Shown: piece by piece, positions 28,284 to 31,594 of the stretch | How positions within the stretch are numbered: the first letter of the stretch is position 1 | How the letters are laid out: every line of letters begins with the position of its first letter | Source of the DNA: Candidatus Parcubacteria bacterium | Lineage (GTDB): Bacteria; Patescibacteriota; Minisyncoccia; Sungbacterales; SURF-37 | Assembly (NCBI GenBank): GCA_003599755.1 | Contig: QZJO01000012.1 | Location: 1-57,289, forward strand | Length of the DNA: 57,289 nt | Direction: 5' to 3' | Notes under the pieces: model-generated | The model's input: the letters and a program-made list of their open reading frames with translations, nothing else | The model's database searches: none | What the model was told of the DNA's origin: nothing | Translations under genes and position numbers: made by a program

Positions 28284-29100
28284 CCGCCTGCATAGCCGCG
28301 ACGTCATCGTGCAATCGCGCCAAGCGAGGCCCGAGCGCGTCCACGAGGAACCGGGCCGTATCTGCAAGCGCGAGAAACGACGCGCGATCCAGGGTCTGAC
28401 CCTTTTTCACCGCGTAGAGTTTATTGCCAATGAATTCGAACGAATAGCCGTTCCGCTCCGGCCGCAGCAGCTCAGCGATGATTTCGGGCGTGAATATCTC
28501 GAACGCTTCGATTTTGAGATGCTCGTTGACGTGCACTTCGAATTGATCATCGAAATCTGCTCGGATGGAGATGCGCCGCTGGTGCGGCCATTCCAGATCC
28601 AGATCTTTCAAAAACGACTTCGGATCGACTGTCATATCGGGCACGAGGCCATCGAACGAAATTTCCGATACGGCGAAATAATACGTATGCTTGCGCTTGC
28701 CATGGCCGACCACATAGCGATATTGAAACAACCGCATGGGCCGGCCGCGGTATACGCCTTCCAGGATATGACTTGCCGCGCGATTCCTGCCGCGAGCGAA
28801 TAGATTCCCCGCCGCATCCGCGGCATTGCCGTGTTGCGCGTACGTAAACCCGAGCTCACGGGCGAGCGCGCGGAAAAACCGCTCTTCCATACGCATGCGC
28901 GCCAGCGCTATGCCGCCGACAAGCCAGAGCGCCGCCGCGACGAAGCCCCAGAAGGCATTGAACGCCGCTGCGGCAGCGACGCCGAGTGCGAAAAGGCCGA
29001 GCGCGGGACCGAAGAATTTCCAGCCCCAGACGTCAACGATATAGCGCCACACCGCGACGTTGACATCGTGAATCGTGCCGAACGATTGGGCATCATCCAT
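28264..29100 (-). CDS. Hypothetical membrane protein (possibly DUF3137-like)
   Basis: Two TMs, then F..LA..LGF.Y, F.Y.Y..G.GK and FD..F.V motifs; TATACT 8 nt upstream of ATG. Confidence 0.72.
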   Translation of the reverse strand: MDDAQSFGTIHDVNVAVWRYIVDVWGWKFFGPALGLFALGVAAAAAFNAFWGFVAAALWLVGGIALARMRMEERFFRALARELGFTYAQHGNAADAAGNLFARGRNRAASHILEGVYRGRPMRLFQYRYVVGHGKRKHTYYFAVSEISFDGLVPDMTVDPKSFLKDLDLEWPHQRRISIRADFDDQFEVHVNEHLKIEAFEIFTPEIIAELLRPERNGYSFEFIGNKLYAVKKGQTLDRASFLALADTARFLVDALGPRLARLHDDVAAMQAATARAR

Positions 29101-29148
29101 TGCCGCCAGTATACTATTCTCTGACGAAAGAATCCGTCGCGCCCGCCT

Positions 29149-29604
29149 ATGACCATGTTCAAAACCACCACCGCCAAGACGCCGGCCGAATACATCCGCA
29201 TGCAGCCCGAGCCGCGCCGAACCGATATCGCCAAGCTCCATGCCTTGATCCGGAAAACCGTGCCCCACCTCAAGCCGCACATCCAGATCGGCATGCTCGG
29301 ATACGGATCCTACCACTATCGCTACGCAAGCGGCCGGGAAGGGGATTGGGCGATCATCGGACTCGCCAACCAGAAGAATTACATTTCGCTTTATGTCATG
29401 GCGGCCGAAGGCGGCCGATACATCGCCGAGAAATATAAAAAAGAATTGCCCAAGGCCAGCATCGGCAAAAGCTGTATCCGATTCAGGCGCCTTCTGGATG
29501 TCGATGCGGCCGTGCTCGCGCGGTTGATCAAGGAAGGCGCTCAGGTCATGCAAAAGGCAGGCGCGCAAAGCGCGGAAGCGGTTCGATCCGCACGCGCCAA
29601 ATAG
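29149..29604 (+). CDS. DUF1801 (YdhG-like) protein
   Basis: MLGYGSYHYRYASGREGDW, QKNYISLY, GKSCIRF. Confidence 0.85.
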   Translation: MTMFKTTTAKTPAEYIRMQPEPRRTDIAKLHALIRKTVPHLKPHIQIGMLGYGSYHYRYASGREGDWAIIGLANQKNYISLYVMAAEGGRYIAEKYKKELPKASIGKSCIRFRRLLDVDAAVLARLIKEGAQVMQKAGAQSAEAVRSARAK

Positions 29605-29623
29605 CCGCCGAATACGACGATCT

Positions 29624-29652
29624 TTGACAGATCGCCGTATTCGGTATATCCT
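29624..29652 (+). promoter_or_regulatory. typA promoter
   Basis: TTGACA-17 nt-TATCCT. Confidence 0.7.
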
Positions 29653-29689
29653 TAGTACATTGTCCCCGGGGCAGGGACTTTTTTCATGG

Positions 29690-29805
29690 ATCCCGTTAGA
29701 GGCCGCAGTTCGCCGCTTGTCCGCGAACTCTACGGATCCGTATGGGCATCATTCACTTCTAACAGAATCTCTGGCAGATCGACCGCGACCTGCCTCTAAC
29801 GGGAT
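29690..29805. mobile_element. MITE-like fold-back insertion at the typA start codon
   Basis: 14-bp perfect terminal inverted repeats ATCCCGTTAGAGGC/GCCTCTAACGGGAT; ATGGA repeated at 29686 and 29804. Confidence 0.7.
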
Positions 29806-31594
29806 GGAAATACGAAACATTGCCATCATCGCGCACGTGGACCACGGCAAGACCACGCTGACCGACGCGCTCCTGCGCCAAACCGGCTTCATGGGCGAAG
29901 TCGGGTCCATGGATTCCAACGCTCTGGAGCAAGAGCGGGGGATTACGATTTACTCCAAAAACGCCTCGATTCTCTATCGGGATACCAAAATCAATATCGT
30001 CGATACCCCCGGCCATGCTGATTTCGGGTCCGAAGTGGAGCGGGTGCTGCGCTCGATCGATTCAGTGCTTTTGGTCGTGGACGCGCAAGAAGGCCCCATG
30101 CCGCAGACCCGGTTCGTGCTCCGCAAATCGCTGGAACTCGGCATCCGGCCGATCGTCATCATCAACAAGATCGACAAGCCGGCCGCGGATCCCGCGCGCT
30201 GCGAAGAGCAGGTGCTCGAATTGTTCCTGGAGCTCGGCGCGAACGACGCCCAGGCCAATTTTCCGGTCGTCTACGCGATCGGCCGCGACGGCATTGCCAA
30301 ACGGACGCTTACCGAAACATCCGACGATCTGACGCCGCTTTTGGAAACGATCTTGGAATTCGTGCCGGCCACGGACGCGGCCAAAAAGGAAGAACCATTG
30401 CGCTTCCAGCCGTTCAACCTCGGCTACGATAACTTCCTCGGGCGCCTCGCCATCGGCCGCATCCACGAAGGCACGGTGACCGTAGGCCAGCATGTGGTGA
30501 TCAAAAACCAGGCCGGCGCGACGCGCTCGGGAAAAATCATTAAAATATTCACGTTCCGCGGATTGGAAAAAATTGAGGCCGACCGGGCCGAAGCGGGCGA
30601 TATCGCCATGCTCGCGGGCCTCGGCGACATCGATATCGGCGAGACTGTGGCCGAAACCGCGGACGCCGAACCGCTGCCGGCCATCGCCGTGGACGAACCG
30701 ACGATCGTACTGAAATTTTTGGTCAATAATTCGCCGTTCGCCGGCCGCGAAGGGAAATTCGTCACGTCGCGCCAGATCCGCGAGCGGCTCGAACGCGAAC
30801 TTCAAGTCAATGTCGGATTGCGCGTCGATTTTGCCGAGGCCGACGCGTTTACGGTCTACGGCCGGGGCGAGCTGCACATCGCGATCCTCCTCGAAACCAT
30901 GCGCCGCGAAGGGTACGAGCTGCAGGTCTCGCAGCCGCAGGCGATTTTGCAACACCGGCCGGACGGTATCTATGAGCCGTTCGAGGAAGTGGTCGTGGAT
31001 ACGCCGAGCGCCTGGCAAGGCACGATCATCGAGCGGCTCGGCACGCGGGGATTCGTGGTCCAGAACATGCACGTCGCCGGCGATGCCGTACGCCTCATCT
31101 TCGAGGGACCGACGCGGGGATTGCTCGGCTATCGAAACCAGTTCGTCATCGATACCAAAGGCGAAGGAATTTTATCATCGCGCTTCCTCGCGTTCCGCCC
31201 GTATGCGGGCGACATCAATAAGCGCCCCACCGGATCCATGATTTCCATGACCACGGGCAAAGCCCTCGCCTACGCGCTCTGGAATCTCCAGGAGCGGGGC
31301 GCGATCTATATCAAACCTAACACCGACGTGTACGAGGGCATGGTGATCGGCAACACGGCCAAAGGGGAGGAAATGGCGGTCAACCCGACCAAGGGTAAGC
31401 AGCTGACTAACGTCCGCGCCGCGGCGTCGGACGAGGCGATCGATTTGGTGCCGCCCCAGGAGCTGACGATCGAGCGGGGGCTCGAAATCATGGCTGCCGA
31501 CGAATACCTTGAGATCACGCCCCAAGGCGTGCGCCTGCGCAAGCAGCATCTGACCGCCGTGGACCGCACGCGCGCCAAGCGCGATGGCCGCTAA
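29804..31594 (+). CDS. typA: Translational GTPase TypA/BipA
   Basis: [53 protein letters not shown]. Confidence 0.97.

Follow-up and report, generated by a model that had tools for sequence, protein, structure and literature searches.

The window analysed here, the whole 57,289-nt stretch of contig QZJO01000012.1 from a Candidatus Parcubacteria genome, contains a 114-bp insertion at the start codon of a typA/bipA-like translational GTPase gene, which we take to be typA, the name that an earlier reader had given it. The insertion duplicated four bases of its target and belongs to a widespread family of elements that recurrently land on start codons, and across this family the reading frame beginning at the displaced ATG is open up to a stop built into the right end of the element far more often than control frames are. 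We consider it probable that the typA insertion is a mobile, hairpin-ended copy from a nuclease-driven family and that ribosomes are relayed across it onto typA. Coordinates refer to the forward strand of the window unless a contig label (C1, C2 and so on) is given; these labels denote the 13 contigs of the window's own assembly, G000, which comprises 928,662 bp (0.93 Mb), is GC-rich and is 100% complete by markers.

Insertion and boundaries at typA

The sequence-only reading of this DNA had described a fold-back insertion that duplicates the typA start codon, and this is borne out by a TGGA target duplication, by family copies elsewhere and by uninterrupted starts in relatives. The 14-bp perfect inverted repeats of that reading are only partly correct. 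ATCCCGTTAGAGGC does stand at 29690-29703 with its exact reverse complement at 29792-29805. With up to two mismatches allowed, the 57-kb window holds no match besides this pair (0.31 matches were expected, and two were reached in 3 of 100 shuffles). The true repeat is 13 bp, and the fourteenth pair consists of the last base of the left duplication and the first base of the right one. The boundaries were placed at 29691 and 29804 because comparison of family copies lets the element begin at the T of TCCCG and end at the A of CGGGA. The features at the insertion, all on the forward strand, are as follows.

29686-29688, forward: original typA start codon, now the start of an upstream open reading frame (uORF); assigned from the uninterrupted starts of relatives
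29687-29690, forward: left target-site duplication TGGA, 4 bp; from family comparison
29691-29804, forward: non-autonomous element of 114 bp without a nuclease gene, ends TCCCG...CGGGA; only the ends match other copies
29691-29703, forward: left terminal inverted repeat TCCCGTTAGAGGC, 13 bp; encodes uORF residues PVRG
29707-29729, forward: internal hairpin agttcgc/gcgaact with arms 29707-29713 and 29723-29729; from predicted folds
29731-29742, forward: palindrome tacggatccgta; from the sequence and the predicted DNA fold
29792-29804, forward: right terminal inverted repeat GCCTCTAACGGGA, 13 bp; holds TAA at 29797-29799; the final A of the repeat doubles as the A of the typA ATG
29805-29808, forward: right target-site duplication TGGA; its TG completes the typA ATG, and its other bases begin codon 2
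29686-29799, forward: 37-codon uORF MDPVRGRSS...ATCL, which starts with the old ATG and stops at the TAA of the right repeat; listed in the table of open reading frames (ORFs), frame open through the interior
29804-31594, forward: typA/bipA-like translational GTPase gene, 596 aa; N-terminus aligns with relatives from residue 1

Removal of 118 nt restores ttcATGGAAATACGA, which equals the uninterrupted ATGGAAAT(T/A)(A/C)G start of relatives, so that the intact start predicted by the sequence-only reading was recovered. Since the element ends in A, this base and the duplicated TG together rebuild the typA ATG; the earlier statement that the repeat supplies AT has to be corrected, as the element gives the A only. 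The ORF table agrees with the earlier note that the upstream ATG at 29686 opens a 37-aa frame, the TAA of which (29797-29799) lies in the right repeat and ends 4 nt upstream of the typA ATG (29804). The internal hairpin and the palindrome are both present and both appear in predicted folds. Taken alone, the typA copy may also be read as carrying a 5-bp duplication (ATGGA) instead of one of 4 bp.

The typA copy combines terminal repeats, a target duplication, multiple copies together with unoccupied relatives, and a coding partner, which are the criteria for a MITE (miniature inverted-repeat transposable element). Judged from these sequence features, it is a gene-less member, or MITE, of a hairpin-ended mobile element family.

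Family copies in the genome and at typA of relatives

When the 123-nt stretch 29686-29808 was compared with its own assembly, other loci matched only its first 24 and last 29 bases, and the interior of the element matched nothing else in G000. The sequence-only reading had named the lack of any other genomic copy of the terminal repeat as speaking against an insertion; G000 holds 17 paired copies of 68 to 277 bp with the ends TCCCGTTAGA...TCTAACGGGA. Their 4-bp duplications differ (TGGA, TGAA, TGAG, TGCA, CCAG, TATG). In 12 of the 17, the A of the right end and the following TG open an ORF of 118-596 aa, while a 13th is stacked on another copy (C4:6976-7099 directly upon C4:7104-7219). Judged by their N-termini, the host genes presumably encode proteins resembling L6, L19, L9, NusA, CysS, MurG, a MurJ-like protein, a HIT protein and TypA.

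The tandem pair at C4:6976-7219 precedes a 567-aa MurJ-like gene, and its upstream copy is a deletion derivative of a nuclease-coding element. Such stacking, which also occurs at typA of one relative (L043), may arise because each insertion recreates an ATGRR target. A further copy, of 100 bp (C1:254771-254870; ends CCCCG...CGGGG, duplication CCAG), is located within a gyrB-like gene, in the 5' end. Seventeen codons, MANKAQAKSNIEKVSNG, are opened by an ATG of this copy and continue in frame into ASYTAKDIYVLEGL..., and by this arrangement the gyrB-like gene seems to have gained its start and N-terminus from the element.

The 5' regions of typA were read in 20 relatives of the same order, in which typA DNA is 66-76% identical to that of the window. 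In fourteen the typA start is free of any insert, and two of these, L026 and L031, show ATGGAAAT directly after a hairpin and T-run. A copy of the same family stands exactly at the typA ATG in four (L033, L035, L043, L044), with two copies in tandem in L043, and the small-copy scan described below added a fifth typA copy from another genome, a Lloydbacteria metagenome-assembled genome (MAG; L054). These copies and that of the window share ends only, and their interiors and lengths differ. The copies of L035 (genome G009) and the window are both of the CCGCGGTCGC subfamily, and their interiors are unalignable at such divergence.

The sequence-only reading had also named, as contrary to an insertion, a leader conserved in all relatives, and the 14 relatives without an insert show that there is none. 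Together with the lack of an Rfam match they rule out a conserved native leader or riboswitch of typA: the Rfam scan of 29000-30500 gave, at E up to 10, only three chance snoRNA-like matches with E of 1.4 or more. Removal at the RNA level in the manner of an intron, taken together with the native-leader idea, is exceedingly improbable. The flanking direct repeat would permit exact restoration of the start and the sequence does form a stem, but intron features are not present, most relatives lack the insert, and copies with target duplications stand at many unrelated genes.

A second kind of insert was seen at the typA start in L027 (G028), L037 (G001) and, besides the family copy, L035. Here a repeat of the first 16-33 nt of typA precedes a short GC hairpin, after which come a spacer and the real start, an arrangement that resembles the rebuilding of a tRNA at C10:118021 (see below).

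Target sites in other genomes

One genome per species was scanned for small copies, defined by exact ends and a length of 96-126 bp with free flanks. At least 120 stretches were found, of which 80 loci with 87 copies were analysed, and the following counts apply to these among the matches listed. Most are labelled as Patescibacteria MAGs (Saccharibacteria and Parcubacteria groups), and a few as Omnitrophota, Elusimicrobia, Planctomycetia or Gammaproteobacteria. A search of viral_contigs for carriage by phages gave no exact match to the small-copy pattern or to the full-size one.

Seventy-six of the 87 small copies adjoin an ATG with an ORF of 60 aa or more. For comparison, the same holds for 41% of the 6572 ATGRR sites of G000. 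Identical flanking 4-mers were found in 55 of the 76. These are effectively independent cases, as the interiors of the 76 copies fall into 74 clusters at 80% identity. Five of the 11 copies without an ATG-initiated ORF carry a TGAA or TGAG duplication (one of them imperfect, CGAA/TGAA), which points to a sequence preference for (A)TGRR besides selection. The element family is widespread and recurrently lands on start codons.

Reading frames and the proposed stop-restart ending

The frame test set comprised the 59 independent small copies with an upstream ATG among the 76 that adjoin an ATG-initiated ORF. In 24 of the 59, no stop interrupts the uORF frame within the interior. The two remaining forward frames are open in 6 and 4 copies (Fisher p=9e-7), and the three frames of the reverse strand in 8, 5 and 8. 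Of the 24 open uORFs, 17 terminate with the TAA in the right end and the other 7 in an ATGA overlap. When copies were sorted by length class, those with the TAA in phase were open in 17 of 28 cases versus 3 of 56 frame controls (p=6e-8), and those with the ATGA in phase in 7 of 21. The class in phase with the host gene was open in 0 of 10, without any in-frame fusion. Over all 76 copies the length classes are skewed (36/26/14; chi-square p=0.008), and the frame is open in only 3 of the 17 copies that have lost the upstream ATG. Of the 8 small copies in G000 that have an upstream ATG, 4 have an open frame; these belong to the TAA class without exception and include the typA copy.

The excess of open uORF frames across the family lends statistical support to the idea, put forward in the sequence-only reading, that the element end acts as a stop-restart module, and the right end seems to hand ribosomes on to the host gene.

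Alternatively, the element could be a tolerated passenger with an incidental uORF, typA initiating independently at the rebuilt ATG and start codons being the only harmless sites in a dense genome. This we regard as unlikely. In its favour are the 35 of 59 copies in which the uORF stops early, the persistence of 17 of 76 copies without an upstream ATG and the 41% of ATGRR sites in G000 that already open at least 60 codons. It does not readily account for the open uORF frames, which in independent copies are 4-6 times as frequent as open control frames, for open uORFs that end precisely at TAA-N4-ATG or ATGA, or for skewed length classes with no in-frame fusions.

The nuclease-coding partner

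Two of the G000 copies, both 277 bp long, contain a 94-codon ORF: C2:12075-12351, before a 420-aa gene, and C3:6284-6560, before a MurG-like gene. This ORF starts at the host's original ATG and stops at a TGA overlapping the rebuilt one (ATGA). The 94-aa product of C2:12075-12351 (P0001) matches the Pfam GIY-YIG family PF01541 (E=5e-15); among solved structures the UPF0213 proteins 1zg2 and 1ywl come closest to it, and matches to Slx1 are weak. Part of the nuclease gene survives in the copy at C4:6976-7099, an internal-deletion derivative, so that at least some small copies are deletion derivatives. We infer that the nuclease from the two intact 277-bp copies moves the gene-less copies.

Nuclease homologues (E up to 1e-8) occur in 46 of 62 genomes of the same order, with up to 10 per genome. 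Inverted repeats of at least 9 bp surround the nuclease gene at 21 of 30 loci in the order; 11 of these are of the CCCGTTAGA type, and the others have different repeats, again adjoining ATG or TATG. Different nuclease lineages are accompanied by different matching repeats.

Full-size copies were sought in metagenomes with exact ends, which gave at least 120 matches; 80 loci were taken and 78 copies were analysable. Among these matches listed, 67 of 78 have an ORF of at least 80 aa as the only gene between the ends, and 65 of 78 end in ATG, followed in 61 of the 65 by at least 60 open codons or a contig edge. A TGAA duplication is present in 52 of 78, and 45 of 78 belong to the length class in which upstream ATG and ATGA stop share a frame. 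The nuclease ORF extends from the host ATG to the ATGA overlap in 23 of 78 (24 by a looser count), and full copies presumably express the nuclease from the host gene's own start codon. In an alignment of 25 nucleases, all of which match PF01541, Y-T-G, H38 and E58 are invariant and R34 is nearly so, and the residues MNPVR and LSLTG are encoded by the two terminal repeats.

In G000 the Pfam models for Y1 (PF01797), DDE_Tnp_1, rve, DDE_Tnp_4 and IS110 transposases had no match; a control search found PF01797 in 6 of 14 known genomes. The TnpB zinc-ribbon model reached 20 bits only in G000, which is below its cut-off.

It is quite unlikely, in our estimate, that the GIY-YIG gene is cargo, namely a hitch-hiking homing-type nuclease within elements that another, unrecognised enzyme moves. 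GIY-YIG enzymes are not known to have transposase chemistry, and small GIY-YIG genes of G000 also stand in other contexts (in an apparent 23S rRNA gene, beside a tRNA-Asn and between different inverted repeats). However, the nuclease ORF is the sole gene between the ends in 67 of the 78 full-size copies, the repeats themselves code for the residues at its beginning and end, nuclease lineages are paired with repeats of their own, and five common transposase families were not found in G000.

Three of these other loci are described here in their own right. At C1:96347-96577, a small GIY-YIG gene with a flanking 15-bp inverted repeat (GTCCGGCACCTTCTT) lies inside an apparent 23S rRNA gene, which fits the non-intron GIY-YIG insertions reported from rRNA genes of the candidate phyla radiation (PMC11270868). 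At C10:118021-118248, a small GIY-YIG gene adjoins a tRNA with, by eye, a GTT (Asn) anticodon, and the 5' part of the tRNA is duplicated upstream. At C10:123502-123741, another lies in an intergenic gap between a different inverted repeat (CCCGGTTGTGAAATTTCAGCTG).

Leader, predicted folds and translation at typA

Two features precede the insertion.

29624-29652, forward: promoter-like site TTGACA-17-TATCCT; consensus match 10/12, 1 site versus 0.2 expected
29662-29685, forward: leader hairpin GTCCC..GGGAC with TTTTTTC after it; adjoins the original start codon on its 5' side

As the promoter-like site lies upstream of the insertion, the element would be transcribed within the typA mRNA; no promoter-like site was found inside the element. 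The leader looks like one of the terminator or attenuator type. A similar hairpin and T-run occur at or near the typA ATG in L026, L030-L032, L034 and L036, directly at the ATG in L026 and L031.

In both the minimum-energy and the centroid RNA fold, the 13-bp terminal stem is predicted to form and to include the A and U of the typA AUG, and the DNA fold of the element has z=-3.36. No Shine-Dalgarno-like motif was found in the fixed 9 nt before the rebuilt ATG (TCTAACGGG). The 55 reconstructed targets are A/T-rich upstream without a G-rich block; in G000 at large, Shine-Dalgarno motifs precede 11.7% of ORFs versus 10.1% of controls, figures that carry no information, as they derive from crude ORF calls with unreliable starts. 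The predicted burial of the A and U of the AUG and the lack of a Shine-Dalgarno-like motif in these 9 nt argue further against independent initiation at the rebuilt ATG behind a mere passenger.

The sequence-only reading had also suggested that the stem could regulate typA. A stem that takes in part of the AUG could have been exapted as a cis-regulator, for example as a temperature- or ribosome-load-sensitive gate on the start, and this could coexist with a relay. At least 5 other genomes do carry a family insertion at the typA start. We nevertheless hold such regulation to be very unlikely, since the typA copies have unrelated interiors and lengths, the same element stands at many unrelated genes, 14 of 20 relatives have no insert, no Rfam match was obtained and the total folding energy is unexceptional.

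A TTG-started frame at 29624-31594 on the forward strand (656 aa) is open through the whole element into typA. Its TTG is part of the first hexamer of the promoter-like site, so that a 60-residue N-terminal extension of TypA, if annotated, would probably be an artefact, and gene callers may report such a false extension because the frame runs open into typA. The 37-codon uORF, for its part, may be annotated as a hypothetical gene. Logan contigs from four runs break at the element and none bridges it or skips exactly 118 nt, which makes them uninformative on expression or unoccupied alleles; a Logan joint 29706->29780 derives from other family copies.

Proposed mechanism and its weak points

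The favoured reading, a mobile copy with a ribosome relay onto typA, can be put as a sequence of steps. A copy inserted at TGGA after the A of the typA start codon and duplicated the four bases, and the element is presumably co-transcribed with typA. Ribosomes would load at the old AUG beside the U-rich leader, possibly before the 3' arm has been transcribed, and translate the throw-away 37-codon uORF, which would open the terminal stem in which the A and U of the typA AUG lie. They would then terminate at the UAA in the right end and restart 4 nt downstream on typA, by termination-reinitiation, RNA unfolding or both. Two models of translational coupling have been published, RNA unfolding and reinitiation at very short distances, and the relay that we infer for typA fits both as they are summarised there (PMC12548453).

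As to the movement itself, the Ssn family consists of single-domain GIY-YIG nucleases that are site-specific for single-stranded DNA (ssDNA) and have NTS/SRM hairpin repeats (Chenal et al. 2025, Nat Commun, PMC11893778). By analogy with Ssn, which in that description cuts ssDNA beside a hairpin, the nuclease of the present family may recognise the folded ends (PMC11893778). A wider proposal is that these elements form a new class of prokaryotic DNA transposon, in which the sole protein, a ~94-aa Ssn-like GIY-YIG nuclease, moves the element into ATGRR starts, probably via ssDNA. Host transcription and the host start would be borrowed for expressing the nuclease, the right end would have evolved into a three-frame relay (TAA-N4-ATG, ATGA, fusion avoided) and expression of typA, the product of which is a ribosome-associated GTPase, would now depend on the relay. 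This proposal is tentative; we find it plausible and a little short of probable.

Several observations weigh against the favoured reading. GIY-YIG enzymes are hydrolytic nucleases that are not known to carry out strand transfer, which makes insertion, with its ligation step and 4-bp duplication, hard to account for. Copy interiors are unrelated even inside one genome, which is odd for a recently amplified MITE, and the unoccupied sites compared come from the nearest relatives, which are only 66-76% identical in typA DNA. The uORF stops inside the element in 35 of 59 copies, and in 4 of 8 in G000; the relay would therefore be frequent rather than obligatory, and many host genes manage without a tight one. 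With the element in place, the typA leader has an unremarkable total RNA folding energy (z=-0.89; equalled in 36 of 200 shuffles). Finally, the published repeat motif of Ssn is absent from the elements. The SRM motif has 4 matches in G000 versus 4-10 in five shuffles, and none within 50 bp of the 17 copies.

The genes hit in G000 presumably include, judged by their N-termini, those for ribosomal proteins, NusA, GyrB and TypA. Built-in stop-restart ends would explain how a parasite sits on the start codons of essential genes in 1-Mb genomes without killing its host, and the family offers hundreds of independent replicates of short-distance reinitiation.

Comparison with known systems

Classical bacterial MITEs derive from DDE-type insertion sequences and are mostly intergenic. 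The present elements resemble those described as Correia/NEMIS, ERIC, RUP and Nezha in being small, with terminal repeats, a target duplication, many copies, presumed co-transcription with neighbouring genes and a long predicted RNA stem-loop (PMC3184786). They differ in that the partner encodes a GIY-YIG nuclease and that 76 of the 87 small copies among the matches listed stand on a start codon which they rebuild. IS200/IS605 elements are not known to have target duplications or terminal inverted repeats. IS200/IS605 and REP/RAYT, which the discussion of the Ssn paper names (PMC11893778), use hairpin-recognising HUH Y1 transposases. They are likewise tiny and hairpin-ended, with gene-less derivatives that spread and a plausible single-strand mechanism. 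The present family differs from them by its duplication and from IS200/IS605 also by its inverted repeats, and its genome lacks a Y1 transposase (PF01797 in G000).

Closer in position, and a precedent for the proposed relay, are the mycobacterial interspersed repetitive units (MIRU), small and apparently mobile repeats that sit at start codons. An ORF inside the repeat is coupled to the host gene by a -4 overlap, which is held to keep the influence on expression minimal (Supply et al. 1997, cited after PMC12548453 and PMC3184786). Compared by these descriptions only, the likeness covers start-codon insertion, an internal ORF that ends at or overlaps the host start, and tetranucleotide direct repeats. 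MIRU differ, on the same descriptions, by having no known nuclease-encoding partner, imperfect terminal repeats and tandem arrays; the present family has strong terminal stems, a built-in TAA-N4-ATG or ATGA ending and a different phylum as host.

In the literature searched, we found no inverted-repeat element with target duplication and a GIY-YIG nuclease that inserts at bacterial start codons; the supplements of the Ssn paper may list such loci, and its main text contains neither "start codon" nor "Patescibacteria" (PMC11893778). As far as that text describes Ssn, the likeness lies in a ~94-aa single-domain GIY-YIG protein and in hairpin-forming repeats that bracket the gene and also occur gene-less in many copies. 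The Ssn gene stands between complete hairpin repeats, whereas here the gene lies between the two halves of one hairpin, with a 4-bp target duplication and a precise landing on start codons. The Ssn authors remark that NTS-ssnA-NTS looks like an insertion sequence, and in their text a transposon-like role of the GIY-YIG fold in bacteria is a hypothesis only (PMC11893778). The fold would gain that role if the nuclease truly moves the elements described here, and the unit of ~280 bp, with its 94-codon gene and two 13-bp ends, would then be among the smallest autonomous mobile elements known.

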